64,000 nucleotides of DNA, from the NCBI GenBank assembly GCA_009103225.1, contig RHPI01000008.1:300015-364014 (forward strand). The letters run 5' to 3'. This stretch comes from Chlorokybus atmophyticus (lineage: Eukaryota; Plantae; Mesostigma and Chlorokybus algae). The translations under genes and the position numbers were made by a program. Of the stretch, positions 13,838 through 61,060 are shown piece after piece; the first letter of the stretch is position 1; every line of letters begins with the position of its first letter. The notes under the pieces are model-generated. The model ran no database searches, was not told the origin of the DNA, and worked only from the letters and a program-made list of their open reading frames with translations.

Positions 13838-13839
13838 GT

Positions 13840-25319: not shown

Positions 25320-25985
25320 TGTACCAGTCAAGGCCAAATTTCATGATTTTCATGGCCATCTTAGGCCTTATTTGTGAGGTATCATGTTCTGCATGACTTA
25401 GCGGATATCGGCGAGTTGCGAGTCTGCCGCAGATATCGACCGGCCCAGGGCCAGTCTGGAAGACGCCAGAAAACGGAGGGCCAGTCGAGAAGGGCTCGAC
25501 CAGATTTCTGGAAGGGCCTGGCGCCAAGTAGTATAACTTGACCATATGAGCAGCAAATGAGGAGATCTTTGGTGCGTCGGAAAGTTCTAAAAGTGTACTA
25601 CAACATTATGCAAGAATATCTTAGCTTCTAGTTCCGTCTAGCGCTAGAATCGTCTAGACAGTAGCATGTGCAGACTGGTAGGTATAAAAGTGACATTCTA
25701 CATTTTGCAATACAACCTTTAGCTCCCTAGTTTCTGGTGTGCAAGCTTGGTGGTGGTTAGCAGGGGTTGCTAGCGTGTGTCCACTGGTGTGTGCTTGCTT
25801 GTGTGACAATCCAAGGCGCTACACAAGTCGGTGTGTAGCTTGGAGCGCATGCGCGTGCGTACGCGAGTGGCGGGGCGCGCGTGTGTGCTTGGCAGAGGGG
25901 GCAAGATTCCGGTGAATACCGTGTCTTGGTGAGAGGGTTGTTGATTGGACCAACTCACAGGTGACAAGGCACGAGCACCGTCACA
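25320..25985 (+). repeat. 5' LTR of gypsy copy B
   Basis: Direct repeat of 30745-31416; reverse complement of the copy A LTRs. Confidence 0.95.
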
Positions 25986-26078
25986 ACCGGTTTTGGAGCA
26001 CGGTTTACGAAGGTAGAGCGGAAGTGTGTGGGAGTTTACACTTTTCATTCGGAAGCGGAGTGTAGTGTGTTAGTGGAG

Positions 26079-29000: not shown

Positions 29001-30749
29001 AGCTGAATTACCCCGTGCACGAGAAGGAACTTTTGGCGCAAGTAATGGCGCTACGACAATGGCGTTGTTTTCAAGAAGGCAAAAAGTTCGTGCTTGAGAT
29101 GGATCACTCTCCACTGTGGTACTTACAAACACAACCTCATCTAAGTCGCAGACAAGCACGATGGCTGGAGTTCTTTTAAATTTTTGACTTCGATATCAAG
29201 TACAAGCTCGGTACGTCAACTGGTGTTGCTGACGCGCTGAGCCGGCTTAATGCAATTGAGGCACTCGCTCAAGTGCAGCCCGAGTGGACCGACCAGATTC
29301 GGCAAGTGCTTCGTAAAGACACGGAGGGTATGAAAGTGTTGCAAGAGCTGGAAAGTGCAGCTACAGACACAAGTGGGCATTGGTTAATGCACGACAGGCT
29401 GATATGGCACCACGGGCGCTTGTACATCCCCAACGTCGCGCATATCCGCGTGAAGTTGCTGAAGGAAGCTCATGACGTGCCCGTTGCTGGTCACCAAGGG
29501 TTAGAGAGGACTTTGGCAAGCTTGAAACAGCGTTTTTATTGGCGAGAGATGCATCGCGATGTGCGCGACTACGTGGCGTTGTGCGACGCATGCCAAAGGG
29601 TGAAGGCAAGCAACCAAAACCCAGGTGGGTTGCTGCAACCTCTCGCTGTGCCATTGTCCAAGTGGGAGCAAGTTACCATGGACTTTATTACGGGGCTACC
29701 AAAGACAAAGAAGGGTAAGACGCTATACTTGTGTTTGTCGACAAAATCAGCAAAATGGTACGCTTGGCACCATGTGGTGAGTCTTGCACGGCACCGGAGG
29801 CAGCACGCTTGTTCGTGAAGCATGTGTTTCGTTCTCATGGATTACCACGAAGCATTGTGAGTGATCGCGACCCGCGCTTTACAAGTAAGTTTTGGGAGGC
29901 GCTGCATAGTGCACTGGGTACCACACCGAAGTTTAGCACGACATTCCACCCGCAAACTAATGGGCAAACGGAATGGGCCAACCGTGTGATCGAGGACATG
30001 CTGCGTCGCTACGTTAACGCGCGACAAGACAATTGGGCGGAGCTGCTTGAGTTGGTGGAGTTTGCGATTAACAACCACCACAATGCAAGCACAGGTGTCA
30101 CTCCCTTCCTTATGAACTACGGGCAACAACCATTGACACCGTTGACGGCATGGACACCGCGACGACATCACGTGCGTGTGGAGGCAGCTAATGACTTTCT
30201 CACAAAGTGCGCGAACATTAATAAGGCAGCTAGGGAGGCGCTATTGGTGGCACAAAACAGGCAGAAGCAGTACGCGGACGCGCATCGCCGACACATTTCA
30301 GGAAGGCGACATTGTGTTACTCTTCGCGAAGCATGTACAGGTGCGTACGAGAGTTTACAAGCTGAATGAACGCTGGTTGGGACCATTTAAGGTCAGCAAA
30401 GTTATTTCGGACGTGGCGTACAAGCTGGAGCTACCCGACACCATGCGTGTGCACCCCGTTTTTCACGTCTCCCTTCTAAAGGCATATCGAGGACAACCGC
30501 CAAAGACCGCCCCCCGAAGTTGGCACGGATGGTGAACCAGAGTGGGAGGTAGAAGACATCCTTGGTGAGAAGTTTGTACATGGCGTGCGCAAGTTCTTAG
30601 TGCAATGGAAGGGCTATCCATTGCATGAAGCATCCTGGGAGCCAGAGGCACACTTAGCTAATGCTCGAGACGTTGTGCGTGACTATCCTGCTCGACGACA
30701 ACCTCGCGAGCTTCGAGGACGACGCTCACCTAGGGGGGGAGGAGTGTAA
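26079..30749 (+). pseudogene. gag-pol of copy B, frameshifted with stops
   Basis: Gag with CCHC knuckle CYACGSTEHLAYGC (about 26955-27000); protease LMIDSGANSNF; [10 protein letters not shown]...YLGDILMY; RNase H ACDASDTVVGAVL; integrase HHCC and [10 protein letters not shown]; chromodomain EWEVEDILGEKFVHGVRKFLVQWKGY at about 30540-30670. Confidence 0.95.
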
Positions 30750-31416
30750 CAGTCAAGGCCAATTTCGTGATTTTCATGGCCATTTTAGACCTTATTTGTG
30801 AGGTATCATGTTTTTCATAACTTGTGGCGGATATCGGCGAGTTGCGAATCTGTTGTAGGTATCGACCGGCTTAGGGCCAGTCTGGAAGACGCCAGAAAAC
30901 GGAGGGCCAGTCGAGAAGGGGGGCTCGACCAGATTTCTGGAAGGGCCTGGCGCCAAGTAGTATAACTTGACCATATGAGCAGCAAATGAGGAGAACTTTG
31001 GTGCGTCAGAACGGTCTAGAAGTGTACTACAACATCATGCAAGAATATCTTAGCTTCTAGTTCCGTCTAGCGCTAGAATCGTCTAGACAGTAGCATGTGC
31101 AGACTGGTAGGTATAAAAGTGACATTCTACAATTTGCAATACAACCTTTAGCTCCCTAGTTTCTGGTGTGCAAGCTTGGTGGTGGTTAGCAGGGGTTGCT
31201 AGCGTGTGTCCACTAGTGTGTGCTTGCTTGTAAGACGATCCAAGGCGCTACACAAGTCGGTGTGTAGCTTGGAGCGCATGCGCGTGCGTACGCGAGTGGC
31301 GGGGCGCGCGTGTGTGCTTGGCAGAGGGGGCAAGGTTCCGGTGTGAATACCGTGTCTTGGTGAGAGGGTTGTTGATTGGACCAACTCACATGTGACAAGG
31401 CACGAGCACCGTCACA
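30745..31416 (+). repeat. 3' LTR of gypsy copy B
   Basis: Follows the PPT AGGGGGGGAGGAG, ends GTCACA, followed by TSD CATAA. Confidence 0.95.
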
Positions 31417-34075: not shown

Positions 34076-36205
34076 TCACGGAGCTGATGACCGCGCCTTG
34101 CGACTGTGAACTGTACTCTTGCTGAGTGATGCAGCCACGCAGCGTTGCATGGGGATGCTCTGGATGTGCGCTTGTGAGAAGCAAGCCTGGGAAGTACTAC
34201 GCTGGCTGTAGAAAAGGTCCGCAGAGGACTGTTGCCCGTTAATGGCTTCTGTGCGCCACGATGCTTGGCGTCTTGAGCTAACAACACGCCGCTTGCCAGA
34301 TGTTGAGGCTGCCTTTGACAAACTCTGCAGCTGCGCCACAGTCTTGGCTGTCTGCGAGTCAGCACCCAGATACTTCTGCGCCATGCTGTACAGCGTGTGC
34401 GGATCGCACATGCCTGGGCTGGCAGACATAAAGCTCGTGTACATGTCATAGGTTACGCTGGGCAAAGCTGCGGTTGAGGTCAATGTGCCATCGGTAGTGC
34501 TGTCGGTGCCACACAAGTCTGAGCTGCTCTGGTCTGGTGACAACGCCACTGCATCACTGGTGCTCATTGGTGTGGCTGCCTCCATTGGGCTGCCAGCTTC
34601 ACTGCAGTGGAATGGCATCTCAGGCAGCCAGCCTTGCTTAAAATCACCACTTGGCAGCTCATCAGCGTTGCTTGGCGTTGCTGCCGGCTCAGCAAAAGCA
34701 GTTGGGTCATTGCTGCTGGTGATGAGACCGCGAATGCGTTCATCTACAGACATAATCTTCTTGTAATGCTTATGGAGTACGCCAGCGGGGAATTGAAGCA
34801 CATGCCGCCTGCAAACGGAATTCGCTTTGAAAACCACATCAGCAGCGACGTGATGCCTGCTGACATCCCATCAAGCCAAGAGAGAAACACTTACATGTTC
34901 ACAGTGGCCTGCCCACCAGTGAAGTCTGTTGTTGTCTGCCAGAGGGTATGCTTTCTTGGTTGAGGGTTCGTCTCTTTAAAGAACAGTGGAGGGCGAGCCA
35001 ACTCTAGCTCAATCATTCCAGGCTGGTCCTCAGGCATGTCAACCTTAAAGACACGAAGGTCTGACCATTGCATCTCCAGCTTGCGCTTCAGTGTACCCTC
35101 GAGCAATTCCCAGACAACTTTGCGCTTGGCATAATAAAATTTGCCGACCAGGTCACCTTCATGACATGAAATGCGCTGCACGAGTGTGCCAGCGTCAGAA
35201 ACATCACAGCATTATGCAGACATACTGCAACTGGATGTCTCAGGCAACGATCTGCATCACATTGAGCCAAGGTGAAGTACCTGCCAAGATCCGATTTGCA
35301 GAAGAGTTGCTGGGAAATTAGAGGCCTTCATCTTGCTGTCACACTTGAACTCAACAGCGCTTTGGACAGATGCAGAAACAACTGTGCTCTCAGATATGGC
35401 CTCAAGGATGCGGGGGGCTGGTCGTGTAGTAGGCGCCAATGCAAGGCTTGGAACTGCCACAGCTCTGTAAGGTTGCTCCGCACACTTGTCCTGACTATCC
35501 GAAGGAGGGGGTTCAGTGGCATCTACATCAGTGCCACGCAGCCGGCGATTGACCAAGTCCACCAGTGATGCAGACTTCTTCAGTTGCAAGCCAAGAGGGC
35601 GGAGCATGGGTTCAGTGTCGGGGTCCTGAGAATTGGGCCGATCACCTTGCACCCTTGGGGTGGTTGGGCATAGAGCGTTAAACTCATGCATAGAACTTGA
35701 CTGTATATCACACATGTTGTTCTGGTGCGTAGGCCACAAAGGTTCAGCGGCTGCAATTCCTGTGATGCTCGCTGTGCTGGGCACAGGCATTGCAGCTGCC
35801 GAATACCCTACAAAAACATTATCCTCTATTGAGGCGCCCGCGGTAGCTGCAGACTCGCCTGTTGGAGTAACCTGCGCGTGTTGAGCAAACTCAGCACCTG
35901 AAAGGCCATGAAAGCGCGTGCCATGTGGACAACTGTTATCAACTGCTGACCTGAACAAGCTGCTGCGTGGCCTGAACCGTGCCTGTGCCAATCAGGTCAG
36001 AAGGGCGTTTGTGGCCACGGTCTTTAGCGAATGCAAATGCATTAGAGGCCAGTTGGCTGCAAATTGCAGCATACGGAGGTGGCAGGGAGTAGGAGAATGT
36101 ACAAGGTGGGAAAGGGGGGAGCGGTGGCATCAAAGCTGCTGCACATGGTGGCTGCCAGCTGTGCTTGTCGGCTATCTGAGGTGAGCGGGACACCACAGAC
36201 ACCAT
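34076..36205 (-). CDS. Plant-type TRF2/HOY1 PH-like domain protein (family with the MKASNFP...GDLVAKCYYAK signature)
   Basis: Spliced core: PLGLQLKKSASLVDLV...KMKASNFPATLLQIGSWQ|RISCHEGDLVGKFYYAKRKVVWELLEGTLKRKLEMQWSDL...LARPPLFFKETNPQPRKHTLWQTTTDFTGGQA|RRHVLQFPAGVLHKHYKKI; donors at 35280 and 34894, acceptor at 35176; stop 34076-34078. 5' exons uncertain. Confidence 0.85.
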
Positions 36206-38482: not shown

Positions 38483-41400
38483 ATGGCGGCGGCGGCGGCG
38501 GCGGCGGCGGTGATGGCGGATGAGGGCTCTGTAGCACTGCTATATGAGGAGCAATGTCAGAAGTTGGAGGCTATACAGGTAGCGAGGCCTTTATGCAACA
38601 ATAACCAGCGTGATTATGCTAAGCGCCGGCGGGTTGAAAACAAGTATCATGTTAACCAGTTGAAGGAAGAGTGTGGGTTGACGAGGACTCGTTTGAACCC
38701 TACTGGTGTCTTCTTGTATGCGGTAACGTGTGGTAAGATCTGGAGATGGGAGGGCGATAACTTGGTGCTGGTGAAGGTGAGTGGGTTTGTGTACGTATAT
38801 GCTATGAAACTGAATGCGTGCTTTGCAGTGTAGGTGGTTGATTACATGGCATGTGCAGGAGGCTGATCAACTGGCTGCATTGTCCCCAGCTGGCCATCAT
38901 AACCAGGTAGGGTGTACAGACGCTGTGTGTGCATGCAGGCTCATTATATGTGCATGATCATGCTGATACTTGTGTGCCTATAGAAAGGAGAGCTGAAACA
39001 GCTAAACTCCGAGGGTGAAGATGTCGAGAACCAGGAGAACACTCAGCCGGGCTCTTCTCAGCCGCGCAAGAGGCAGAAGTCGCATCAGCTTGGTCTGCAG
39101 CAGCAGGTGCCATCTGCGCATGCATTGCATCAGCAACCGTCCGCGAACACGTGTGGACCGTTATGGCAAAAGTGTGCGGATGGGGCCAATCCTGTCGCGG
39201 ATGGCGGCTGCTGCTAAAAACGTGCCAAGGACGCCCAGGACACCACTTGGGACACTGCCAGGTGGGCGGTTTGGCAGTTGAGTTGAAGTGGTTTCTTCGG
39301 CACAACAGACCTTAGCCAATGGTAGTGCTGATAAGGCTGTAAGACTGGTAGTGGTCGCTGCTAGCGTGCTATGATATGCAATAATACACTAAATAAGAAG
39401 AGCCTGTGGTGGATGTGTCGGCTTTGATGCGCATGGTCTTGTGTATTCAGATACAATGGGGACTGCAAGAGTGCATGCAGACAAGGCGTATAGGCAGACA
39501 AGTGTGTTCAGCCAATTGGAGATACATGATGCATGGCTATGTGATGCTTAGGAGGATAAGTTCAACACACTGCATGATTTGGGTGGGCAAGTGAATCGCT
39601 TCATCGATCATGCAGTTGAATAAGTTGTGCAGTGGTTTGAGGAATGCTGTGGTCCATACACTGTCCATGTTCGTGGTCGTGGCCAAATGCACTAGCATCT
39701 ATCACGGTGTTGCCAGGATACTGCATGTACATACAATGCGTGTGGCATATGCTCATGCACAGCGACCATCCCACAATCATACCACTCACATTTCACACTA
39801 CCACGTAGTTCACCACCGGGCTACTCTACCAAATCTACCTAATAATGCTAACACCCCGATAGTATGGTGATGGGTGTGCTCAGTGTGTCAAATCTGTGTT
39901 ATATGTTGGCACGCAGTGTCTCAGGCTGCAAGTACAAAGGCTGACAACGCAGCCGAGCCAAGTGTCCAAGGAGCGAGACAGTCAGGCTGTGGAGATGGAA
40001 GGGTTGCGGGCGGCTACTAGCCGCCCGCATAGTATGCGTAATCTGGAGTTGGCGGGACGCATAGGCCAATCCCAAGCGCTGCTGGACGCTAGACAAGAGG
40101 TTCAGCACTTGCGCAAAAAGTGTGAGGTGAGCACTTAATGAAGACTCCTCCTGCAACCTCTCAACCTGGGGTGTCTCTGTGGTGTGGGACTGCACTCTCA
40201 TGCTGTGGTTGGCCGTGTCAGGTAGCACAGTGCAAGATCGTGCGTCACCTCTTGAAAGAGCAGCGGCGGTGTGAGGAGTCTGCACGCGCACGCCAAGAAC
40301 AGGAGGACGAGTTAGATGAGTTGCAACAACATGCTGAGGTGTTGCTTGTACTGATGTGTAGTTGCACCTGGCGGTCCGGTGGGTCGATTGAGGAGTCTGC
40401 ACGCGCACCCCAGGAACAGGAGGACGAATTAGATGAGTTGCAACAACATGCTGAGGTGTTGCTTGTACTGATGTGTAGTTGCACCTGGCGATCAGGTGGG
40501 TCGATTGGGCACTCTGCTGACAGTGTCCCTTCAGGTTTTGGAGACAAGGGTGCGCGAGGAGGCAGAAGTCGGTAACGGCGAAAGGCGTCGCAGGCTCAAG
40601 GCTGAGAGGGACCTGGAAGGGTACCGCAGCAAGCTGGTGGAGTTGGAAGACGTCATTGCCGGTCTAAGGGAGATAGTACGCACTAGCACATCGGTGCGAC
40701 AAACACAGCACGATGAGCGGGTTGCTGAAGAGGTGCGGCAGCTCTTTGCAGCAGAAGTGACTAGTGTGGCGACTAAGGACTGCGTGGAGCCGTTGGCATG
40801 TACCGTTCGGGAAGTTGCTCAGCAACTTTTGCAGAGAGATGCTGTTGTTTTCCTCACGGCAGTAGCTGCCAAGTACAGCATTACGCCGGCGCGCTATCTG
40901 CTGCGAGCTGTTTAGCAACGCTTGCCTGGTGCAGTGGTTGTTGTGACTTGTGCCAGGCAGCAGGGAACTTCAATGATCGGCGCCTGAGCGGACCCACTGT
41001 CATGCCTCCTGCGTTATGGCACACGCGATACCGAGTTGCCTGTCAGTGCACAGGCCACGCGTGCGGGCACCAGTGTACGTGATGCGGACACTCTGCCAGA
41101 TGGCGTGCTGCGTACGCTCTCACGGCTCATGGAGAATGAACGGCAACGTCAGGTTGAGCGCAACAAGTCGGACCCTGACCTGAGTTTAGTGGACTCAAAG
41201 GAGAAGTGGGATGCCTTCAGCGAGCAGCTGTGCAGAGTCTTCGGGGCCCTGACTGGATACAGTGCATTGGAGCGACTGAGAACACCTGGACGGAGACATG
41301 CATCAGCGCTCACCATACTCCGTAACAAGACACTGCTTTTTATGCACACAGCGTTATATGCGCGCAGCAAGTTTGCATACTCGCCACTGCACTTGGTGGT

Positions 41401-44400
41401 CACTGATGAGGTGGACATGCACTCGCAAGGCAACAAGCTGATTCAAACACTCAACCGTCTGGGGGTGTCTGTCAGTCGTGGTCACATTGACCAACACATC
41501 CATACTCGTGCACTGCACAGTCTCCACACCGTCAGTTGGATTCGTCCCAAGCCAGGCGTGCACGTCTTGGCGTCCATAGACAACCTTGACATCAGGGCAA
41601 GACACCAGGCACGCTACAAGGGCAGGCAGGGAGGAGACATCCACGCAACCTCAACTCAACTCACATCCACTATGGGACGTGTTGCACTCCCACCGTTGAT
41701 TCTGCAGGTGAGAGATTGACAATTACTATCTGAATCACCTGTGTCACAAGCACTATAGTCTTGTGCATGTTTTGCTGACGCTGTGCTTGCTACCATGGCA
41801 GCCATCGAGGAACAGAACTATGGCAGAATCGATGGTTCAACAACCAACGGTGGACCCGATGCCGACACAGGCTCCGTTGCCGCGTGCGCCGAGTGTCATT
41901 CGAGCGACCCCATACTCCACTTAAAACATGAAGAGACGTCCGTGGATGACCAGGGAGGCCCAAGCTGCGCTGCCCACGCTGAAGGAGGATTGGGCTCGTT
42001 ACTTGCAGATATCCACTGGAGAGACAATAGTAGTGGCCAATGACATAGAATACCTGCCAGTCCTGCCATTCTGCCCCAACAACATTGACAATCTCAAGCA
42101 CGCACTGCTCCACCTGCGTGCCAAGGTGGGCATTATCAATGACAGCAGCAAGATATGTGTGACCGGTGACCAGAAGACGTTTTTGTTGATGCATTCCCTC
42201 AAGATTGCAGAGCCGAAATACTGGGATTGGGTTACGCCCTTGCCGGGAAATTTTCATGTCCTCATGAACATGCAGCCAGTGCTCATGAGATGGCATGGGA
42301 CGCTAGACTTGCGATGTCACTGGAAGCCGGATTCACGATTTCTACTGCGCGCAACCATCTGGCGGATGGCTCACACTGGAAAAAGATACATAACTGGCTA
42401 TACAAGGTGAGGGAGGCCCTGTACAGACATATGTACAAACTGTGGGTGGCGAGTGCGAGCGAAGAAGTGCTCAGCATGTGTCGCGCTGACCAAGAAGAGC
42501 ATGGGGTGATGTCGTGCAAGTCTGCCACATTCTTCCGCAAATGGTGTACAGAACAGGCAAAGACTAACCACTTGGCAGTTCTGGTGGAACTTCGTCAATC
42601 GGGACATGCTCAATTATCTCGGCCTCTTCTGCTCTGTGCGCCAGAAGATATGGCACCTGCGAATGGCCACATGGAAGGGGCTTGGTCCTCTGCCGTTTGC
42701 GTGGGACCGCTACCATTATCAGAAGGTTATGACTCTGCATCTGGGGGACTTGCAGGTCATTCCTCGGGACTTGCGCGAGATGCTGGCATCAGGTGGCTTT
42801 GCACTTAGTCTTACCGGTGCTGCTGGTCGCATGGTGGCACTCGACAAAGCTCACGAGTCCATGATCAACAGAGATATGAAGATGTCAATTTGCCGCCCTA
42901 TACAGAAGCAGCTGCGACAGAAATCAATGTATCTAGGCGAGCGTAGCCAATCGCACAAGCAGCTGCAGCAGCAGCTGCTGCTGAGCAACACATTGCTCAA
43001 CAACGAGTTGGACGATGACGCTGACGATGACCACGAGAGGGTACTGCGCAGCCTCGCCAAGGATGCGGCAAGGTACGGCAGCGATCTGCAGCACATGGCA
43101 GACTTTTTGCTAAACACTCAAGCGTTGGCCCGCCCTCACCAATTAAAGTTGACTTACCTTACATCAGGGGCGCCTGCAACGCCATTATCAAGTCGGTAGT
43201 AAGTCCATGAAGTCCTTTGTGGAGGTTGAGATCTGCAGAGAAGCTCCACCGTGCAAGTTAGTCGGCGGTTCAACTTGAAGACAATGGCGCCAGCAAAAAA
43301 ACGCATCACTAATCAAGCGACAGTGCTCAAACAGTATCGACAGGAAATGCTTGTGGCCAAGCGCCTAGCAGCAATCGGCGCTGACAAATCTGAAGTAACA
43401 GCCAGATACTGCGAACACCCTTGGGCTCTCTTTTAAAGAGTTGACTGGCAAGATGCGGTCCGGAGAAAAGTCCAAGTTCCTGTCGGAAGTCGCATCACTC
43501 GATGCACCGTGCTTGAGCCGGCTCCTCCACCAGAGGTTGACTGCTTCATCTTAGAGGGCATGTTTCTGATCAACAAGGAATGCCAAATGACAGAAGGAAC
43601 AATTAAGGATTACATATTGCAGCTCATGCGTACCTCGGTCTTCAGTCGTTTGGCCAACCCAACTGTGCGCAGCGTCCATGTGGTGTTCGATACTCTTAGG
43701 CTGCAGAGTGGCGTCAAGTCGTCGCTGCAGCGCTCGCGCGACGGCGTGGCTTCCTCGTCAGGAGGCAGGTTGACTTTGGAGACAGAGCTGCCGCGATCAT
43801 AGCGTGATGTGTTAAGAGACCGCAGTCTCAAGCGATCATTATGTGAACTTATTACGGAGCACATGCCAGCCATGCTTTAAGATCACTTGCGGATCGACAA
43901 AGAGGTTGTTTTCGCTGGGGGTTCTGACAGCATTGTGTTCAGTGACCTCGCAAAAGTTGTTGCACGCAACAACCAATTATCTGTCTACTATGTAACGGAT
44001 TATAGCTGCAACCAAAGTAAGGCAGACTCTAGGGTGTGGGTGCATGCCCACTGCGCACCCTACAACAACATCCTCATATACTCACCGGATACGGATGTCA
44101 CAATGATCGGTGTGGCAGTAATTGGGAGCTGGGGTACGTCTCTGAAGGAGGTATGTGTGCAGTTGGCCCAGCACTCCAGTGGGTCCACTCGTCCACCATT
44201 CATCAACCTGAACACCTTGTGGGAACATGTCAGCTGCATGCATCAAGTCGCCAGCATGCGCGTTGGCCGCAGGGTGGCTGCTGCTTGTATATGCTGCCAC
44301 GGGCAGCGACTACGCTTCGTTCATTGGTGGGATCTCCAAGCAGTTCATATGGCGGACTGTCATGGCTAAGCACGCCGACTTCAATACTGGCGACGTAAGT

Positions 44401-45209
44401 GAAGTGGCGCACCAGACGTGCTTTGCAGTGTTGCGCTTGCTGGGCTGTGCATATTTTGAGAAGTATCGCTATTGGTTTGACAGCGGCACGCCAGCATCCT
44501 TGTTCTACGAGCTCCATAAACCTGACGCCACAACAAGTGATAAGGTATATTTGAGCAACTGGTTGGAAGCCATCCACAATACAGTGTGGAAGAAGACTGC
44601 AACACTGTTACGGCAGCCAGGGAGGCTGGGCGTAATACATAAGAATGAGAATAGTCATAAATCCCACCATGGTCTTTTATGGCTTAGATGGCCGGACCCT
44701 TGTCGTAACAAACACCAAGGGAAACGATGCCCACAGTGGATGCGCTATGGCTGCATGCAATGCGTGCAATATATGCCATGCAAATGTGGATGCAAAGCTG
44801 TGAGGCAAAAATGCACCTCCCTGACCTGGCTGAGTATGGTTTTGAGGAAGTGGACGGTGTGTGGACTGCACTTCAAGATCTCCCGAAGAACATGCAGGAG
44901 GCCAAGAGCAGGAGGCAGCTGATGAAAGGCTGTAGTTGCAAAACTGGCAGATGCATCAGCAAAAGATGCAAGTGCAGGAAAGCAGGACAAGCATGCACCG
45001 ACAGCTGTAGCTGTCTGGGGTGTGACAACCACAGCCCCCAGGAGCCATCCGGTGCACAAGATGCTGCACCATGTGCAAGTGCCACGCCAACCACTGCTGC
45101 ACCAGTTTTCGCACATGTGGATGTGGACATAGACTGGGACTTTAACGACTTTGATGACAGCAACAGCGACGTAGAAGACCTCATCAACATGAACATGGAT
45201 GACATTTGA
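38483..45209 (+). mobile_element. Academ (AcademX-type) DNA transposon gene, decayed: DDE transposase + XPG/PIN-like nuclease + Cys8 finger
   Basis: LNRLGVSVS...ASIDNLDIR...GDIHATS (41.4-41.7 kb), VTGDQKTF and LPGNFHVL (42.15-42.27 kb), VALDKAHESMINRDMK (42.83 kb), PWALF...GKMRSGEKS, CFILEGMFLI, VHVVFDT, CNQSKADSRVWVHA, ILIYSPDTDV, ATGSDYASFIGGISK, WLHAMRAIYAMQMW, GCSCKTGRCISKRCKCRKAGQACTDSCSCLGC. N-terminal spliced coiled-coil exons run from ATG 38483. Several stops and frameshifts; TIRs not found. Confidence 0.85.
40273..40506 (+). repeat. 117-bp tandem duplication across an exon-intron junction of the Academ gene
   Basis: GAGGAGTCTGCACGCGCAC...GGTGGGTCGATT at 40273-40389 and 40390-40506. 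Confidence 0.92.
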
Positions 45210-45368
45210 CTGCGTCTGAAAGCATGTAATGGACCGATACGCTAGGCTCACAAAATTAGGGTTTACCTCGCTTTATTGGGGTTCAGCAATCGGAGAGGCG
45301 GCTCACCTTCCGCTGTTTCAGGGGCGCTGTGCAAATCTGGACCGTGCACTGTGTGGTCCCATCCTCCA

Positions 45369-46941
45369 ATGGCGCCAACACTCACATGCATTGTCTGCCG
45401 TGCATACATCGTAAGCAACGGTCAGCGTCCTCGTCTATCCCGACACCCATCCCAGTGCTAGTCTTACCACCAGCGATTCGGCTTCACCGCAGCATGTTGG
45501 CACCACCACGCCGCGGGGCAGCACATCCTCGATTGCAGAGCCATTCGTCGCTGCAAAAATCCAGAGTTCTTCATATCAGAGTGCACCTGCAATGCCTGTC
45601 AGTGCTCTGCCTTCGAATGGAATGGGCAGCTCATGCGGTATATGCCATACTTGCGTCCCAGTTTCTCGCCGCAGGCACCTGACCGCCGACAAAAGCAGGA
45701 TATGAGAGGCAACAAGAGCTATGCACAGTGTCCTGCGTCGAGAGAGAGCAATGCGCAGCCATGCCAACTACCATGCTGCGGACGTGGAACGCACATTACG
45801 CAAGTTGGCAACATTGAGCATTCCCAGACCACACCGACGGCTGTCGGCACATTGGACACCCTTGCAACGCACCGCCGCCGTTGCAATGAGGGTGGTGTCG
45901 CGTTGATTGGCAGTGCTATCATGGTATACTGGCCAGCGGATTCAAAGTGGTACAGTGGCGCTGTGGCGTACAGCACTGACAGCGGTGGAACCACATAGTT
46001 GTTGTCGTACCTGTCATACCACCCATGCTGCCTGCAGTCACTGACATGCCGTCTTTGGCCGCCACTCTATCCGCTTTAAGGATGACGATGTGCAGCACCT
46101 AAAGCTAGCATTGCACAGTGTGGCCGTAACTTTCACGCACAATGGCAGGTTGTATTGCATACTGGTTGGAGGACAACGTGTACAGCAACATCGCAAGCCC
46201 ACCCCACCATTGCCCTCCCTACCATTGTGGACCGACTCAACTCTACTCCTTTTCACACATACTCACATCCGTGGTGACGGTGTACCACATCGACCCAGGG
46301 CGCTGAACCTTTGTTGCGGTGGTGGTGCAGCCATCATGGGACTTTACCGCGCTGGCTTCAACGTTACTGGCATGGACATCAATACACAACCGGAGTATTC
46401 ATTTCCATTCATGCAAGGTGATGCCATGACACACGATCTTACCGGCTACGACTTAATATGGGCTAGTCCACCATGCCAAGCATATGTGACATGCATATCT
46501 GAGGCGCAACGCAGAACCCATGATGCCCATTTGCAGCACAGCACTCTGCTACCCAACCTGCTCAGTCGACTGCAAGCTGGAGGGACACCGTACATAATGG
46601 AGAATGTACCATCCGCTGCTGTTCAGATGGAGACCAACATGGTGCTGTGTGGGACGATGTTTGGGCTGCCTACATTCCGACGCAGAGTTTTTGAGACAAA
46701 ACCAATCCTCAACGCGGATCTTGTATGTGATCACAAGTCGAAAAGCCTAGGCAACTTGTCTGGCCATGCAGGCAGCAATGGAGCATCCAATGCAGGGCAG
46801 GCAACGCTATTAATGTTCCCGGTATATGGCAGAGCAGCATCCCGTGGTACACTCACCGGTTGGCAGCAGGCATTAGGCATTGATTGAATACAAGTAGAGA
46901 CCACCCTAGTCGAGTGCATCCCACACACTTGCGTATTTTGA
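45369..46941 (+). pseudogene. C5 cytosine DNA methyltransferase (phage-type) with upstream Cys/His-rich and Tudor-like segments, interrupted
   Basis: Motif I NLCCGGGAAIMG, II GMDIN, III QGDA, IV ASPPCQ, VI MENVP, VIII LCGTMFGLPTFRRRVF; after TGA 46885-46887 the frame continues IQVETTLVECIP (motif X-like). Upstream VYWPADSKWYSGAV (45924-45965) and RHSIRFKDDDVQHLKL (46060-46107) form a Tudor-like pattern. Exon from ATG 45369 is Cys/His-rich and is followed by a candidate intron at 45638-45674. Confidence 0.8.
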
Positions 46942-47295
46942 ATACAAAGGCAGGCAGATGTTGAAGATGTTAGGATACACACTCAGCAGCGGCCCCTTGT
47001 CATGGTCAGCCTAAGGTCCTGCGAGGTAGTGCCAGGCAGCTACCTTTCACGACCTCTACCATACTATAGACATGAGTCCGACTGCGAATCCAGCGCTGTA
47101 CACATGCTAAGAGTTCATCACACAGTTATTCAGCAATCCTGAGTTATACACATGCTAGTTCAGCCGACACTGTTCATCAGGCATGCTGGCATGCAACACT
47201 ACCAATACTGGACAGATGTCAACATGGCCACCTGTTGCATACGTGTGCCGGTGGCCGGGCACAACTCAGTCTTCATGCGACGTATATGATGGCGC

Positions 47296-48640
47296 CTAAA
47301 AAGGCTCATCCATGTGCACAGCTGTTTCGTCGTACGCGCCATACTCTTCCTTGCCAGCGTCACTCTGCTTAATGTGAGATGCTTCGTCAACGTCTCTGTA
47401 TGCTTTGTTGACATATATATGTAGCTTCCATGTCAACTGAGAGATCACGCTCTTGTTGCGCTTGTAATGGTCTTTGTGCTTAGACTTTTTGTCTTTAAGG
47501 ACCTGCATCTAGCAATGGCCCATGTTCAGACAAAGTCACATGCACATGTGACAACAAATGCACCGCACTACATGCATGTTCTGGCACCACAAGCATGATT
47601 CCTGCATCTGGCAATGATTGCCCATGTTCACACCTAGTGAAAGGCAGAATATACCGAAGAATAGCAAAGCCATGCACAAGTATGGCTTGACCGTTATTTC
47701 ACACAACCTCAAACGATGAGACAACAGCACCAGTCACCTTGTTAATTTCCTCCTCTCGCGCCGCCTTTCGCACCTCCAACTTGCGCCTCAGCTCTTTGAT
47801 TGTCCGCACTAGGCACGTGACTTGCCCAACAGGCACAATGCCCATTAGTACACAGTCTTTCCTCGGCCAGCAATACCATTACACGGCACTGTCATTTGCT
47901 GCCTGAGACACTCAATCATCTGCTTCTCAAAGGCCTTGTGCTGTTTGTCATTTTCCTGAAGCTGCGCGCGAATCTCCATCAGCTCCGCATCCTTGGCCTT
48001 CAATTCACGTTCGCACGCTGTACGCACGCACTCGCGTTCATTGCAACAACCAGTAAACTCAGACCTGTGGTTCGAGCATGACGCACGCCACTCCTCATGA
48101 CACAACTTGAACACGTTTGGCTACGCCGCTTCTATATGAAAGCATCAACACTAATGACAATGTATGCATTCGGATTGCTGCAGTTGCCATGCTGATCAAC
48201 GTGTCGCTCATGGGACCAGGATGCATGCGAGCAGCAAGTATATTATATTGCAACCTGGTCAACAATACAACAACAGCACAACCAAACACCTGGACAGGCC
48301 AATGATCCCTAACACACTGTGTGGACCATGGGACAGGATGCATGGGAACATCACATTCGCTGGAGGGGGTTGTATAAGGGTTTCGGGATTGCACTTACAC
48401 TGCATGCATACCTTCTTGAAAAACGTTGCAGATGTTGCCATCGGCCTGACCAACCAACCCTCCCTAGAAGTCTGGCCTAAGACGGCTGCTGCCTGCCATG
48501 CCGCCCGCTCTGTCCGCCGTGTGCAAAACTTCACCGGCGCACGCCACACCAGATCCGCCACACCCAACACCAAGCCCTACAGCAACGCCGCCCCAACACC
48601 CACACTTCCGCCTCCCACGCAGCACCACCCCCACATTAGC
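47296..48640 (-). pseudogene. Degenerate spliced coiled-coil protein of unknown function
   Basis: Charged helical segments ERELKAKDAELMEIRAQLQENDKQHKAFEKQ (47845-48114) and VLKDKKSKHKDHYKRNKSVISQL (47296-47508) with GT-AG boundaries; frames do not join cleanly. Confidence 0.4.
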
Positions 48641-49382
48641 AACAACATCAACCACCCTAAACTCTAACTTTTGCATGACAGAGCCGCTGATACTTCAATC
48701 AAAGACAACCAGATAGAGTGAGTGAAAAATTTTCAGTTTGTCATTAGCTGCACACATAAGCTGTCGTGGCATGTCTATAATCCTGCAAAAGCTGGTACAC
48801 CTGTGCTTGCAAAGGTCAAACGCTGACCGCATGTCGCACACACAGAGAAAACATACACAGCTTGTCTGGCGGTCTCGTAAATAACATTCAACAGACATCC
48901 ATAACAGCTATACAGAAGGGTGTCGCAATCAACGAGCCATGAACAACTATCAGTCGCTCAAAACTGCATTATGCTACGGGCCTGGCAGGATCCGACAGTC
49001 TCCACACCCCACCTGGTCTGTTGTTAGTGAGATCGACTTCGGCTTGCACAATTCACATGCATCAACAGCATGCAGCATGGTATTGCTGATTAACTCTGTC
49101 TATGCACACGCATTGTCTGCGCATAAGCGCTAGACTCAAATAGCAGAATGTGTGGGCTGCAGGAGTCAACCCAAAAGACACACCCAGCAATTGCTCTATC
49201 CACCAGCGGCTGGGTCTCGGGACTGTGACACCATTGCAGCGCAATAACGATCAACGCTTGCGTCAGCATGCACACAACAAAGCAGTTAAGCAATGCAATG
49301 CATAATGCGGACATGAAGATGACAGATCATAGCGTCACAATAGTTGGCATGCACACAACAACGGACATGAACAGGGACTGCA

Positions 49383-50069
49383 TCAACCCATTGCAAATAA
49401 ATGCGACACACGTGTGAAAGGTGACTGCTCACCAGGTCGGAGAGGCATGACTGGCTGCCAACCACCCCCCTCCACTATAAGGGGTGGGTAGGGCAACCCC
49501 GGAGTGTCGCCATAACCGTCGTCGTCGCCGCCCTGCAGAGGATGCAGGCTCCACTGCCCCACTTCAAATGGCAGCCAATCAGTGTCATGCCACTGCTCCA
49601 CCCAATGTCTTCGCCTCCCGGGCTCCATATCACTAGTGGTAGCAATCACCCACCGAGCAAGCACAACCCCACCCTCGACATGCTCCATAACCAGCAGATC
49701 ACTACTTAATTGCAGTTGCATGCCTCCCTCTCGCCGCACACGATGCAAACTGTATCTAAAGCCAAACCCACCAGGCAGCTCGACATGCAGCTCCCTGACG
49801 CCATCACTCGAAGCAGACATGGAGTCTGCGAGAAGAGCTGGACATCCCAGCGACACCTGACGACTGCACGACATAGTATTCCAACAAATTACGGCAACAT
49901 TATACACACACCGCATATGTCTAACACATGCCCATATAACTAGTGCGCCCACCTGCTCATATCCAGCTTGGAAGAACGAGCCGCTCCGTCGAATATATGG
50001 CAACGGACCATCGAGCGACAATGAAACACTCAACGGCACATGGTCATCGTCGTCGCCATGAGCCGCCAT
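49383..50069 (-). CDS. Orphan two-exon hypothetical protein (about 200 aa)
   Basis: Open frame 49383-50144; ATG 50069 MAAHGDDDD...GYEQ, candidate intron (GTGGGC...GTCAG), then VSLGCP...WVEQWHDTDWLPFEVGQWSLHP...; no family recognised. Confidence 0.45.
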   Translation of the reverse strand: MAAHGDDDDHVPLSVSLSLDGPLPYIRRSGSFFQAGYEQVGALVIWACVRHMRCVYNVAVICWNTMSCSRQVSLGCPALLADSMSASSDGVRELHVELPGGFGFRYSLHRVRREGGMQLQLSSDLLVMEHVEGGVVLARWVIATTSDMEPGRRRHWVEQWHDTDWLPFEVGQWSLHPLQGGDDDGYGDTPGLPYPPLIVEGGGWQPVMPLRPGEQSPFTRVSHLFAMG

Positions 50070-51540
50070 GATACATATAACACCAACACAGCTGCCGCCG
50101 CCGCAGCAACACCGACCCGCCCATAACCCACACACAATAACCACGCGATATCCATGCAGCGTTTCACTACAAGCCGATATACGTCCGACGCCACACCCAC
50201 TTGCAACCGCGCTAAACCACTATTAAACCACTACACTACAATAACACTACAATAACCACTGAACAAAACGGTGTGCATGAGTTTCAGCCCACTTCCCCGT
50301 TTACGCACCGTCACCCTCAACTGATCCACGTTCGTCAAAGCCCGATCGACAACAGAAAGCCGACTGAACCAAAAGCATGCCGACACTGATCAATCAGCGC
50401 AGACCACGCGTCGCGCACCGTTCAATCAAGCGCCGAATAAAACCACCTCAATTGTGTCTATCTACGTAACACTGCATGTAACAAAGTTGGTATTACACTT
50501 GTTTTTAAGCTACGTTTCTAGCCCTTTTACCCCAAAACAGCCCTGTTTAACAGGCCTGACGCGTTATGCTTAAATATAATAAAGTCCCGAGTCGCCGGGT
50601 TACTCCTACATCGAGGGCGCGCGTTAAAAAGGTCACGCGAGCGTTATGCGCTGACATTTGACCACCGTTGACAGTTTCTATGCGCCGACGCAGTTTTAAA
50701 CAGCTAATACACATGTTTTAGGCATGTGTTGGCGGTGTAGTCAACATAGTTGACTGCTACAATGATAGTGTAGCCTCTTAGGTTTATAAGTAGCTAATAT
50801 ACTGCTATTAAAAAGGTTGGACCAAGAAGAAATTAAGTTATTGCTCTTGTTGTGGACGGTGTGTGCGTGCTTGTGTAGTTTGCATCCACGGTGCGTGTGT
50901 GCGCGTGGGTGTGCTTTTGCTACAGCTCTTGCACGGACCGGACCGCCCCACAGGCTTTGAGGCGCCTACATTGCCCTGAAGGTGTTCAACCCCACGGTGC
51001 GAATACTGTTGTTGATTGATTGCGAGTAGGTGCACGTGGAAGCGCCATTAGTGTGCTCAGTTGCATCCTAGCTCGTTCATCAGGCTGGTAGCTCTGGTGA
51101 GGTGTTTAATCAGCACGAGCATCGTTACACTGCAACTCCCAACGTATCCCATCGCAGTAACACAACGTCATGCAGCTCCAACAGCGCTGATCCGACCGAT
51201 TTAAGGTCTGCCCCAACAATGGTCTCTGGCATCGAGACTGTACAGTGTTTGCGGCCAGCCTATCCGCGGGACTTTCTGCTGCAAACGGCCGCTGTAGGTT
51301 GGGTTTGTCAAACCGCTTTCCCCAATCAGTCCACCATCGACGGGCGTGGCCGGGCGTTCGCGCTTTGCTATGGTCATCGCACATCACACATTTGCGGGTA
51401 TCGTCTACCATCGATCTAAACACATCATTGGTTACCAACAATCTTGTGCTTAAAGCCAGGTGTGACACCTTCGATCTAAGCACATTGTGACTACTGCAAG
51501 TTAACCTCCTTTAAGCAAATCTGGTGCTTGGGTCGAGGGA

Positions 51541-51735
51541 ATGAGTTATACATATACATACATGTATATAGAATGTACGTACAAGTATATACATACATAA
51601 TTATGCATAAACGTATGTGTATATACGTATACATTTGTAACAAATTCTTTAAAAAAGTAAATAAATAGGTATGTATATATGTTTGTATACATATAGGTGT
51701 ACATTTATCTGCTTACGCAAGTATACGCACAATTA
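51541..51735. repeat. TA-rich microsatellite left of the TIR element
   Basis: Degenerate TATA/TACA/TATG runs; a similar tract with (CA)n resumes at 53617-53815. Confidence 0.85.
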
Positions 51736-53616
51736 CCTTATTTACCCGTTCAAAGTGCCGCCCCTATTACAATTACCCCCTAAATTTCAAGGGGGGCACA
51801 CTGTTGGGCTGTAGTATGCCCTTTCCTGTATACAATGCCCCCCTACTGTAGGATGACATAAAGCACAGTAAGTTACATCCAAGTTATGGTTGAGTTACGT
51901 ATTTTGTCGCATTAAATCGCATTAAATTTTGCTTAATACGGCTAAATACGGTTAATTACGGAAAAGTTCGTCGCAAAATGTTTCCCCTGCCGGCCGACTG
52001 AATATTGGCAACGGCCGTGCACCTGAGGATACTTATTTAGACTGTCGACCTTCAGTCTACCGGCGATCTCGATCACAGGGACCTGAGCATAACGGCCGTC
52101 ACCATTCGGTGGCGGCCGTCTACATAAAGGGCTTGACCCTAATTACTAGGTACCTGTTAGGTACTCAACAGTTAAGCAAAAGGGACTTGACCTAACTAAC
52201 TGATAACTGACCGGTATCTATCAGTTAGGTACCGGCGACTGTATGCTAACTGAGCGAAATTGTCAGGTACCTTAATGTACCTACCGTTAATGATGTGTAC
52301 CTTCAGGTACCTGCTGGTACCGCTTAGTCATGATTATGTGTAACAAGTGATTGTCGTCATCAGCTGTGCCAGAATGCGTGACAAATAATGAACAACAAAA
52401 AAATAAGAATTACAATGTAATATACTGAGCTACGACTACTACTGCTAGTACAACTAGACTACCACTACTGCTACCACTACCACTACTGCTACTACCACCT
52501 TAAGTATTACTGCTAGTACTACCCTTGTTCTGAGCTGCGGCTCCTGTACCGCCCGCTCCAGCTCCGCCGCCGCCGCCGTTCGTTCTCCGCCGCCGCTGCC
52601 GCCGCCTGGCCTGGTCTGGCCTAGCCTAGCCTGGCCTGGCCGCCCTAAGGCAAGGAGGGTGGTTAGATGGCATGCGGTGTTGCGCGTAGTACAACGTCAG
52701 ACAGCAACCAAGCTCACCTACCGTTAGCCGTTGCCGCCGCCGCCACCGCCGCCGCCCACAACGCTCTGTTCAACTTGAAGCCGTTGAGCATTTGAATAAC
52801 TTGGGCAGCTCAATTTATTCGACCGCATTGTTGAAACGTAACTCGCAACGGCATTATCGTATTATTATAATGGTACGAAAGTACTATTGTCGCAATGGCA
52901 CTATCGTACCATTGGTATGGTACAATAATGCCATTGCGACAATGGCACTGTTCGTACCATTCACATAGTACGGCGGCTGCATTGTACTAGCGTCTCGACT
53001 TGCCGGCCGAGACCACCGTCCCAACTTGCCGACCTTGAGGGATCGGCGGTCACTTACTTATCATACTTGACACACAATAAGTACGTCGCCGCCGCGTTAA
53101 GTGCACAACCGGCGATCGACCGTTACTTAATAAACGCGGTAAGGTCACTTGATAGGGACTAACGGTGACTGGCTTGCCAAAGTAGGTAGGCCGTCGCATA
53201 CTTTTCGGCGGTCAGGGTACGACCGACGGTCGGCCGTCACAGTATGTGACCAAAACGTGACTTATCTGCTATACAGATAGGTCGCCATCGCGCAAATGGG
53301 ACGACCGACAATCAGCCGTCACCTTAAAGTGCGGTGTTGCCGTCACAGGCAGGCCGCCGTCGATTGTACTCATCGGTCGACCGCTTGCCGTCGGTATATG
53401 TTGCTTGATAGTAACGGCCCTTTATGGACCAATCCATTACATCGGATAGGGTCAGGCACCCGTCAGTCCCTCAGTCCCTTGTCAGTCACCGTGTGAAATT
53501 TGCGACGTTAATACAATGCCCTCTTTCGAATAGAGTGCCCCCCCGAATATAATAACCCCCATAAATTGTGGGGGGCACTTTGTTGCAAGGGGGGCACTGT
53601 GGACGGGTAAATACGA
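51736..53616. mobile_element. Non-autonomous TIR DNA transposon, Tc1/mariner superfamily (Tc2-like CCGTA ends), TA TSD
   Basis: Left TA|CCTTATTTACCCGTTCAAAGTGCCGCCCC; right end reverse complement TA|TCGTATTTACCCGTCCACAGTGCCCCCC; subterminal GTGCCCCCC/GGGGGGCAC motifs at both ends; no transposase ORF. Confidence 0.75.
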
Positions 53617-53624
53617 TATGTATA

Positions 53625-53665
<41 letters not shown>

Positions 53666-55675
53666 GCATGTACAGATGCACAAGTAATATGTGTACATGC
53701 GTATCATTGTGTTTGCACATGCATGTATATGCACGTAGCCTATACGTTGTATGTATATGATGATGCACACATATATAAATCTGTGTGTACACAATATACG
53801 TATAATTAACATCTTTACCCTCGCTATAATCACAAATGGCAGCTATGGAGAGTGCTTACATTGAGTATGATAGTGCTTTTATATGGTAGTAATTTGCCTT
53901 ATGCACGTTGGTCCCCGATAAACATGTGCTTACACGAAGGCTGTACTGTAACGCATTCAAGCAGACATAAACATTTCAGTCAACTTAGGCTAAGGGCCCC
54001 TTAGTAAGGGGGCTACTACTTATGTGTATTAAGAGGTTTGATATAGTTAAGCTAATTCATGTTCGCCGTGCGGTCAGCGGACTGGGTGATGCTGTTTAAC
54101 GTTGCTGATTACTAATGTTTACATCAATCTAATGGAGTACTAAGACGCGTTGAGCTTATTCACTTAGATTCCACGTTGGCGTCGAGATAACGTACGTCAG
54201 CTATGACTCTTCAACCCTTTACCCTTTACACCCACGCCAACGAAGAGATGACTGTCAGCTAGCGGTAGCGTGACGTCGTCGTAAGTGGCAAATGACTGAT
54301 TGGGAGGCCCCATCAGTGATAAGTCCCTCTGTATCATAGATTTATTGAATTGACAAGTGTGATATGCAACTCGTAAATTTACCTAAATTTGCAAATCCTA
54401 TTTTATACATTGTTGACATGTAGATTCTAAACATTGTCACCTTTGATAGTGTTGCAGTAGTGGCGTGTATACAGCCAGCAGGAGTACGTTGAGGTAGAGT
54501 GTGTGCTCTGAGCCGGGCCCCCTATGTTGTAAAGGTTGCAATTGCAGCATTGCTTCAATCCAAAAAACTTATCTCGTGGCCAGGTAGTAGGAGGTGGTTG
54601 CTTGTCGCATTTGCAGCTTATTTGCTAGGGTACTGTGTATATGTGTATATGCTTTCGAGTGGTTCCGCTGCAAGCGGATATGAAGGTTGGCAGCATGCAC
54701 ATAAACAGAGGATACTTATAAAATAGGGTGCAGCACAATGCAGAGGACATGCATGCATTCGTTTTTACCAAACAGAAAGAAACAATAGGTACGATGTGGT
54801 TGTCCTCGCCGTTTGCTTCTTGCTGCTGTCCACATATTGCTGCTTGAGGGTTTTGATAGTCTGATGTCTTGTCTTATCTTGCTATAGTAGGCTGTGCATA
54901 GCTGTGCCTTGGCCTCCACATGATGCCACGAATGCTTCTTGTTGTCTTGCCCTTGCACTGTCACCTACTTCTGAGTTTGTTATTACCCCGCTTTTCGGGT
55001 GTGTAAATGCTTGTGGTGTTTACCCCACTTGCACAGCACAACACCACACAAGCATATCCGCCTCCCGCCTCGCCATGCCTGCTGCTGGTTCGCTGCCCTG
55101 CCCTGCCTTGTCTGTGCCCTTGCTGCATCCTGCAGCCTAAGTCCTAACCAAAGAATTTCTGTGCTACGGGTAGTTAGTAGCAACCTGCTTCTACCTGCCT
55201 GCCTGGCTCCGCCCCTGCACTTTGCATTGCATGTAGCTAGGGCACGTAGCTTGGTCAAGCCCCTATCAAAATTCTGCCGTGCCCATGCTGTTGTTGGTCG
55301 CTGTGCTCCACGTGTTTGCATGCTTGTCTTCCATCCGCCATGCGTAGCAGCCTATATGCAACTCTTGTGTGTGTTATGTACGGACACAACCTCAATATTA
55401 AAGTCAAGAGAGCAAAAACTTGATACATAGTCATAGACTGTAGCAAAGCAATATGGCAAGCAACAAGCAAAGCCATTGTACTGTCTTAGCAGCGGCAGAG
55501 GCAGGAAGCAGAGCAAGTTAGCGTTATTACTAACACAAGCAGCAACCACAATAGCTCCTCACCTACACATAAGCCCACAGTGATACATACACAATTAGTT
55601 ACTCACAATGTTTACATAATTGAAAAGCCAACAGATGAACAAATCTTGACAACTTTGCGACCCAAAGCAGTATTG

Positions 55676-59999: not shown

Positions 60000-60515
60000 C
60001 TAGCACGCGCATGCAACTACACGCAGGTGCCCTGCAGCACCTGCGAGGACCGCATCCTCCGCCATCGGGGGCACCGTCTGTAGCGGCACCCATCCCGGCA
60101 CAGCCGCCACAGCAGCGGCACCACGCTCGAGCAGCGCCAGCCCCTGCGCCCGCTGCAGGGCGCAGGCCACCCTCTGACGATACATGGCCACGAACCCGCT
60201 CAGACGGCCGAGGGTGAGGCCACGCGTGTAGACCGCCTGCCGGGCGCACTTCGCAATCAGCGCGTTGAACGCCCCGCCCAACGTCCCTAGCGTCTCTGCC
60301 GCCAGCGGTATGAACTCGTCCGCGGGCGGGTGGTCGGCATCCTTGCGCCGCTTCGCCTGCTCCGCCTCCTTCGCCGCCCCTCCTGGTCGCTGGCCTGGTT
60401 CGGGACACGTCCAACAACCAACGCCGATCGCGCCCCGGCTCGGAGGCGACCAAGTCAATCCGACGGTCGTGGGTCTCGCCGGGCCGTATGGGCATAAACC
60501 CGGCCTGCTCCCTAC
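60000..60515 (-). mobile_element. 5'-truncated non-LTR retrotransposon remnant (restriction-like endonuclease C-terminus, CRE-like)
   Basis: REQAGFMPIRPGETHDRRIDLVASEPGRDRRWLLDVS, then a frameshift to GGAAKEAEQAKRRKDA...FIPLAAETLGTLG...RQRVACALQR; GC-richer than its flanks. Confidence 0.7.
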
Positions 60516-61060
60516 TGACGACGTACCCAGCATCACGCAGGATCAGGTACCTCGACGGGATGTCAATGCGCCTGTAGTACCAGCCATGTCAGAAAACTTT
60601 TGCGCAAGAACATGTGCGGTTGCGCCAACCCGTATGCATGTAGCACAAAACGCATGCATATCCGCACTTGTGCACCAATATGCACGAGCAATGCGAAAGC
60701 AGCTGTGCTGCTGCAGATCACTGCCAGCAGGTTCAGCCAACAACATGCGGCGTGGCTGTCCAAGCACGTGCATTTTGGTGCTCTTGTCGTTGGATGCTGA
60801 CCGTTCGGCAATGTAAGAACCTCAATCATAGACTGACACCGCACATTTACATCTCAACACATACGCATTGCCATATGATGTTATACATACCCTCAGTCAC
60901 CATCCAACACGCTTCTGGCACAAGCAAAGTGGAAACAAAACCATTCTCAACAATTAACTCACTATTAGGCAAACTTGAATGCACACAAAACCAGCGCTTG
61001 AATAAACAGCGGTGATTGAGTTCATACTGCCACAGCTTTGCACAAAAAAGTATATGAGCA

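Follow-up and report, generated by a model that had tools for sequence, protein, structure and literature searches.

Cytosine methylation normally silences transposons. Nuclear transposable elements that carry a C5 methyltransferase of their own have been described in algae, namely the retrotransposons SymbioLINE-Dnmt, SymbioDIRS-Dnmt3 and KnitGypsy-Dnmt3 of Symbiodinium and Klebsormidium (PMC5890265) and the EpiLTRs, which combine a C5 methylase with a chromodomain histone reader (bioRxiv 10.64898/2026.05.21.726589). In a giant-virus genome, the cut-and-paste transposon Mariner-1_OLpv bears a transposase, an EcoRII-like restriction nuclease and a C5 methylase (PMC3627910). N4CMT of bdelloid rotifers joins a bacterial-type DNA methylase to a chromodomain in a 'histone-read, DNA-write' arrangement; it deposits 4mC and has been domesticated by the host, where it acts on transposons (PMC8885841). 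In algae, DNMTs restricted to particular lineages include the ChloroDNMTs, in which a PWWP reader is frequent, and the orphan DNMTs, which come by lateral transfer and are generally without companion domains (PMC12344493). Phage and prophage methylases of the phrog_363 family, such as gp77 of mycobacteriophage BillKnuckles, are stand-alone proteins of about 210 residues.

Here, we analysed a stretch of 64,000 nucleotides from Chlorokybus atmophyticus (hereafter the window). Our best explanation of the locus, which we hold to be probable, is that it contains a dead gene fusing a Cys/His-rich region, a Tudor domain and a phage-type C5 methylase, likely the cargo of an AcademX-like transposon whose transposase lies 159 bp upstream. 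As in the retrotransposons and EpiLTRs, so far as the available parts of those two reports describe them, a C5 methyltransferase would thus sit on a nuclear transposable element of an alga. It differs from them in that the element is a DNA transposon, with a DDE/XPG neighbour and no reverse-transcriptase element (the two LTR elements of the window end at or before 31416, away from the methylase); in that the methylase is of the compact phage family, not Dnmt3 or DNMT4-like; and in that it belongs to a separate, predicted intron-containing gene, with a Tudor reader fused to the methylase. The first-pass annotation had proposed a DNA-transposon counterpart of the DNMT-retrotransposons. This idea is not wholly new, given Mariner-1_OLpv, which likewise is a cut-and-paste transposon with transposase, nuclease and C5 methylase, although no case was found on an Academ element. 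Mariner-1_OLpv differs in its giant-virus setting, its nuclease and its transposase superfamily, and the available portion of that paper mentions no chromatin reader (PMC3627910). N4CMT offers the same pairing of a bacterial-type methylase with a histone reader, but the present enzyme is C5-type, Tudor-fused and likely located on a transposon. The lineage restriction of ChloroDNMTs and orphan DNMTs is shared as well, in a comparison made by description only, and neither group is described on a DNA transposon in the accessible text (PMC12344493). With the stand-alone phrog_363 enzymes, the locus shares family, motifs and 36-56% identity. In the literature searched, which held few subscription papers, we found no Academ-borne or Tudor-fused phage-type C5 methylase, although Aravind-lab surveys could mention one; the available parts of PMC11244446, PMC10799480 and bioRxiv 10.1101/2024.10.15.618488 describe no such element. 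Known nuclear elements with their own C5 methylase are retrotransposons, and the Academ-borne, Tudor-fused version was not found in print.

The methylase motifs are contained in an open frame of the forward strand (46045-46887). The domain itself, delimited at 46291..47014 (+) by its relatives, profile and fold, is a pseudogene copy of a compact phage-type C5 cytosine methyltransferase (phrog_363). From 46291 its core runs through motif I (NLCCGGG), PPCQ, ENV and LCGTMFGL..RRRVF to a TGA at 46885-46887, beyond which LVECIP follows. All of the compact C5-methyltransferase motifs that the first-pass annotation had read here are present, including the motif X-like LVECIP stretch beyond the TGA, to which we add a frameshift in motif X. 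The extent that it had assigned, 46090..46941, encloses the motifs but needs revision at both ends, since the core starts at 46291 and the gene likely reaches 47014. A protein search with the 198-residue core found 350 relatives that passed E ≤ 0.001 among 1671 candidates, the best at 4e-40. The core is 36-56% identical to the 120 relatives listed, which are prokaryotic or viral and mostly 200-260 residues long, and it matches phrog_363 at E 2e-20, with 309 of 50,697 phage records matched. When pattern matches were checked against a family alignment, 316 of 600 from bacterial genomes were upheld, as were 453 of 602 from viral contigs; a single-sequence scan of viral contigs confirmed none of nine. 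The AlphaFold model (pLDDT 71, pTM 0.70) shows a C5-methylase fold, and its top Foldseek matches are M.HaeIII (the best, E 2.5e-6), DNMT2 and a prophage methylase. Identity to the solved DNMT1/2/3 and MET1 is 14-22%, with canonical motif order. C62, E104, R130 and R132 are invariant in a 35-row alignment, and the catalytic PC, ENV and RxR are retained in the window copy. The similarity and PF00145 profile searches proposed at first pass gave a divided answer: hundreds of prokaryotic and viral relatives emerged, most of those listed carrying PF00145, but neither PF00145 nor NCBIfam matched the window's own protein. In a tree of 81 sequences built by a quick method from 61 of 160 rows from loci plus window and 20 of 120 proteins, in which every sequence but the query is prokaryotic, viral or unnamed, the query sits on a long branch without supported sister or donor. 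Because the phrog_363 and prokaryotic matches contrast with the low identity to solved DNMTs, and because the fold is M.HaeIII-like, we conclude that the methylase belongs, on sequence grounds, to the phage/prophage family of C5 methylases rather than to the host DNMTs. The earlier call of a phage-type enzyme thus holds, and in fold search and identities the methylase is without resemblance to host DNMTs.

The frame remains open over 82 codons upstream of motif I; prokaryotic relatives have a median of 6 residues ahead of it (116 of the 120 relatives), and three have more than 40. The methylase is predicted to be the tail of a larger gene starting at ATG 45369. The predicted exon 1 (45369..45967, +), defined by its sequence, a match to PDB 7de9 and a piece of a diverged copy, would encode a Cys/His-rich N-terminus, with 16 Cys/His within the first 79 codons, followed by a linker and the first half of a Tudor domain. 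The 7de9 match covers 45891-45968 at E 8e-4 over 26 residues. This structure is the Tudor domain of Arabidopsis RDM15 bound to H3K4me1, in which W616/Y623/Y641 form the cage and D643/D645 the acidic pair (PMC8184781). Four frame-compatible GT-AG introns could join the Cys/Tudor frame to the methylase frame. Only one of them, a 70-bp intron with GT...TGCAG borders inside the Tudor domain (45968..46037, +), predicted from the frame and the cage spacing, was noted to give distances equal to those of RDM15 (W-to-F 25, Y-to-F 18). After the predicted splice, W, Y, F, D and D stand at the spacing of the RDM15 cage and acidic pair, F-x-D-x-D corresponding to Y641/D643/D645. The 5' part of exon 2 (46038..46290, +), which rests on the splice model and a diverged copy piece, would supply this second Tudor half and a linker. 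The N-terminal module is thus predicted to be an RDM15/PDS5/MSH6-type Tudor reader, and the predicted product, of about 520 residues, would comprise a zinc-binding region, the Tudor domain and the methylase; the gene likely ends at TAA 47012-47014. Pfam scanning of the separate Tudor halves gave no Tudor match, the second half gave no relevant PDB match, and the ESM Atlas returned no usable match for the Cys/Tudor frame. The 284-residue N-terminal part had no matches among 296 proteins and 160 loci.

The window copy of the fused gene is dead, a pseudogene, because it has three in-frame stops, at codons 31, 202 and 483 of the 494 in the spliced model (45459-45461; 46042-46044, within the Tudor domain; and 46885-46887), and a frameshift within motif X near 46921-46930. 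Its motif I Asp is replaced by Asn. This copy is incapable of self-methylation or chromatin modification.

Upstream lies a decayed AcademX-like transposase gene (40988..45209, +) comprising a DUF6589 DDE-type region, an XPG/FEN1-type nuclease and a C-terminal CXC cluster, as indicated by relatives, a profile and a TCR/CXC match. Its frame is broken by many stops and frameshifts, and this copy is dead. Read through, with X at the stops, it found 725 relatives at E ≤ 0.001 (best 3e-54) in a HMMER search of 1.84 billion representatives, whereas a word-indexed search with a transposase piece gave none among 1972 candidates. The organisms named for the relatives are lancelet and crinoid (3 of 10 looked up). 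DUF6589 is present in 17 of the 20 relatives scanned, and none of these 20 proteins includes a methylase domain. A profile made from 25 relatives, with the window sequence excluded, maps colinearly onto 41327-45089 across all three frames, matching DNLD, GDQK, GNFH, D..HE..IN, EGMF, VFD, SPDTD, GSDY and CXC; the patterns of DNLD (41561), GDQK (42150), GNFH (42237) and LDKAHE..IN (42831) occur in 17, 19, 24 and 16 of the 25 relatives, respectively. The fold search for the DDE part yielded a weak match to Hermes. The relative P0143, once folded, resembles XRN/FEN1/Exo1/Rad2 nucleases; the window transposase is colinear with it, yet has lost the NxxEAD pattern. At the C-terminus, the TCR/CXC match reaches E 1e-6, and the same pattern occurs in 10 of the 25 relatives. 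The C-terminal cysteine cluster and the domain order of AcademX were reportedly set out by Kojima in 2020. A nuclease and a 3-4 bp target-site duplication (TSD) are documented for AcademX (PMC10045372). The locus is like AcademX in holding DDE-type motifs, an XPG/FEN1-type nuclease and a C-terminal cysteine cluster in one long frame, and differs in that its ends and TSD were not found and that methylase cargo is absent from the Academ literature searched. The Academ call made at first pass is therefore supported by anatomy, as judged from DDE motifs, DUF6589, the XPG/FEN1-type fold and CXC, and we use only the label 'Academ-like' because terminal inverted repeats (TIRs) and TSD were not found.

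Three observations concern the transposase and its upstream region. The relatives P0156, P0168 and P0173 carry extra NADAR or OTU domains, and the Academ-like family therefore acquires accessory domains. An exon recognised from its sequence (38515..38776, +; ATG 38515, GT donor 38777) has no Pfam match; it could belong to the 5' part of the transposase gene or to a further gene of the element. A 117-bp tandem duplication (40272-40507), upstream of the transposase core, extends over coding-like and intron-like sequence.

Two public sequencing runs from two studies (X1 and X2) each hold 11% of the sampled window words; both are low-coverage, with contig pieces shorter than 500 nt, and one may be the window's own source. 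Four further runs (X3-X6) held nothing within the element. In X1 and X2, which also contain this exact DNA, flank pieces are identical to the window and the diverged pieces fall within the element. Six of the eight contig pieces listed in 45198-47007 are diverged (4-17%) and two are identical; the four listed in 47015-50200 are all identical, as are two listed left-flank pieces. Diverged copies of the transposase are present in both runs, and the upstream exon region has a diverged piece in X2 (38747-38940; 6 differences and 3 gaps over 191 nt). Within the fused gene, diverged pieces cover the Cys-rich exon (45553-45745; 8 differences over 193 nt), the linker (46145-46305; 8 over 162 nt) and, in X1, the methylase at 46255-46422 (10 over 168 nt), 46555-46761 (17 over 207 nt), 46635-46698 (11 over 64 nt) plus 46856-46883, and, as another version, 46953-47007. 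The first-pass annotation had considered that the methylase might be single-copy; in X1 and X2 it is not. Another strain in the sample might account for these pieces, but 46635-46698 has two overlapping versions in X1 and an identical one in X2, which argues for paralogues.

The other versions keep family residues that are lost here, namely the motif I Asp and the His of RHR, each found in 114 of 120 relatives. One X1 contig has Trp at the window's TGA (a single, hand-translated contig with a loose end), and another encodes an intact motif X, IPPAYSEFIG, and stops at the codon where the shifted frame of the window ends (again a single hand-translated contig); the latter loses resemblance to the window at its stop codon. 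Since Asp, His, Trp and an intact motif X are all seen in these versions, we conclude from the sequences that the ancestral methylase gene was intact and repeated. Other versions carry their own stops, at 46183 and 46291, so that no complete, intact copy was seen. Among the 40 listed copy differences, CG/CHG positions are not in excess (11 of 25 transitions, compared with 147 of 353 sites), which lends no support to any methylation target.

The transposase is also interrupted by a 105-bp insertion (44606..44710, no strand assigned), with TG...CA ends and an AACAC target duplication. Contigs of X1 and X2 skip it, joining 44600 to 44727, and it is absent from the other copies. No second copy was found within the window, and the insertion resembles a solo LTR or TRIM of very small size. 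Two further contigs, each single, of depth 2-3 and identical to the window on the listed side, jump backward by 5-6 kb on the same strand within the putative element, from 45886 to 40785 in X1 and from 44977 to 38747 in X2; they may be library chimeras, tandem rearrangements or circles.

The two genes are separated by a 159-bp spacer (45210..45368, +), recognised from the sequence and from a diverged copy, between the transposase stop (45207-45209) and the same-strand ATG at 45369. The earlier placement of the methylase gene about 160 bp behind the transposase is right for the ATG of the fused gene, whereas the methylase domain itself lies about 1.08 kb downstream; the co-orientation noted then is confirmed, both being on the forward strand. 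A diverged spacer copy in X1 (45198-45356; 22 differences over 159 nt, 86% identical) extends from the final 12 nt of the transposase frame to 13 nt short of the ATG. No contig bridging a diverged transposase to a diverged methylase was found in X1 or X2, the spacer piece comprising 12 nt on the transposase side. Self-BLAST, local alignment against shuffles and a TIR-plus-TSD scan of the window gave no convincing TIRs or 3-4 bp target duplication; the best TIR score was 28, against a maximum of 27 in 60 shuffles, and was not colinear, in a copy that is old. The spacer has no inverted-repeat partner. One candidate pair of ends, a mirror likeness between 38.4-38.5 kb and 50.05-50.2 kb, was rejected, as it consists mostly of GGC repeats and scored 43 against a maximum of 47 in 100 shuffles. 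We consider the methylase gene to be likely cargo of the AcademX-like element, short of proven because no bridging contig, inverted repeats or target duplication were found. None of the 160 prokaryotic and viral methylase loci has an Academ-like neighbour within 3 kb, so that the pairing either came about among eukaryotes or is a chance event at this locus. A metagenome scan for neighbourhoods of Academ relatives gave one locus among 111 pattern matches, a spurious bacterial contig, and a viral scan gave none among 61.

The strongest alternative, which we nevertheless judge unlikely, is that the Tudor-methylase gene forms an independent repeat, a small mobile cassette or dispersed gene family that landed by chance behind the Academ transposase. 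The region is indeed full of nested repeats, the methylase versions are 6-17% or more apart, and neither shared ends nor a bridging contig for the two genes was found. Chance placement accords poorly with the shared strand and the 159-bp gap, however, and this non-coding gap is itself repeated, at 86%, from inside the transposase frame; the methylase gene alone, moreover, has no flanking inverted repeats that we could find. Less probable still is capture from the host. Pack-MULEs pick up gene copies passively, and a transposon could in the same way have taken, without using it, a copy of a host gene domesticated from a bacterial or phage source, the 5mC counterpart of the rotifer N4CMT. Host chromatin genes typically show such a reader-writer anatomy and an intron, N4CMT is a precedent (PMC8885841), and at least one diverged version seems undamaged in the stretches that contigs cover. 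Against such an origin, only a single intron is predicted, and the versions are 6-17% or more diverged, the most diverged ones keeping the frame where seen, which fits long residence as a repeat family; a search for longer, fused methylase relatives gave 13 matches among 1641 candidates, none with a Tudor by Pfam and none a eukaryote-like fusion, a weak negative. That the methylase is stray phage, giant-virus or contaminant DNA with an over-read Tudor fusion is highly improbable: the close relatives found do all come from prokaryotes or viruses, and orphan DNMTs often arrive with viral insertions (PMC12344493), but the G+C of the gene equals that of the window (0.51), the flanking frames scanned hold no further viral gene, 82 open codons precede motif I with five cage positions at RDM15 spacing, and the best identity is about 50%, on a long branch.

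We thus favour a fused Tudor-methylase gene carried by the AcademX-like transposon, and this transposon family likely once had its own chromatin-guided methylase. A prokaryotic or phage methylase gene would have entered the nucleus, gained host-type eukaryotic domains and an intron, and then been amplified along with the element. In an intact copy, the Tudor cage is predicted to dock the enzyme on methyl-lysine nucleosomes, H3K4me1-like as for RDM15, where the enzyme would write 5mC using SAM and the PC cysteine; the most plausible predicted targets are the element itself and its new insertion sites. We advance more tentatively, as a possibility that we rate below even chances, a broader reading in which an Academ-type family captured a phage methylase, added an H3K4me1-reading Tudor and keeps intact copies that write 5mC on chosen chromatin, offering a route for new reader-fused DNMT families into green-lineage genomes. 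If true, the enzyme would be a mobile writer of the 'histone-read, DNA-write' kind. The retrotransposon strategy would be extended to DNA transposons by a nuclear cut-and-paste element that bears a phage-family methylase and a histone reader, and such an element would show a foreign enzyme being wired into chromatin, a step proposed for N4CMT and lineage-specific DNMTs. No close solved structure was found for compact phrog_363 enzymes, so that an intact copy would represent a small, testable reader-writer fusion.

The surroundings are eukaryotic, with intron-rich genes and LTR elements. On the left, a TRF2/HOY1 PH-like host exon (34903-35175, -) matches Pfam PF24818 at E 3.5e-39, and the 5' end of this gene, near 37.3-37.5 kb, would mark the left limit of the element. 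To the right, a convergent gene (47200-50064, -) is probably spliced, with an ATG near 50064, a coiled-coil exon at 47845-48120 and weak Pfam matches; the listed contig pieces are identical over it, so this gene may lie outside the repeat. Frameshifted GC-rich frames at 60000-60590 (-) have no Pfam match, but their motif is like that of the restriction-like endonuclease at the C-terminus of non-LTR retrotransposons. Two related, decayed LTR retrotransposons, which we take to be of Ty3/Gypsy type, occupy 8215-14511 (-) and 25401-31416 (+), their LTR pairs being 92-99% alike in the blocks listed. Finally, the interval 50650-54000 contains several high-copy repeats, represented by many diverged contigs in both X1 and X2.
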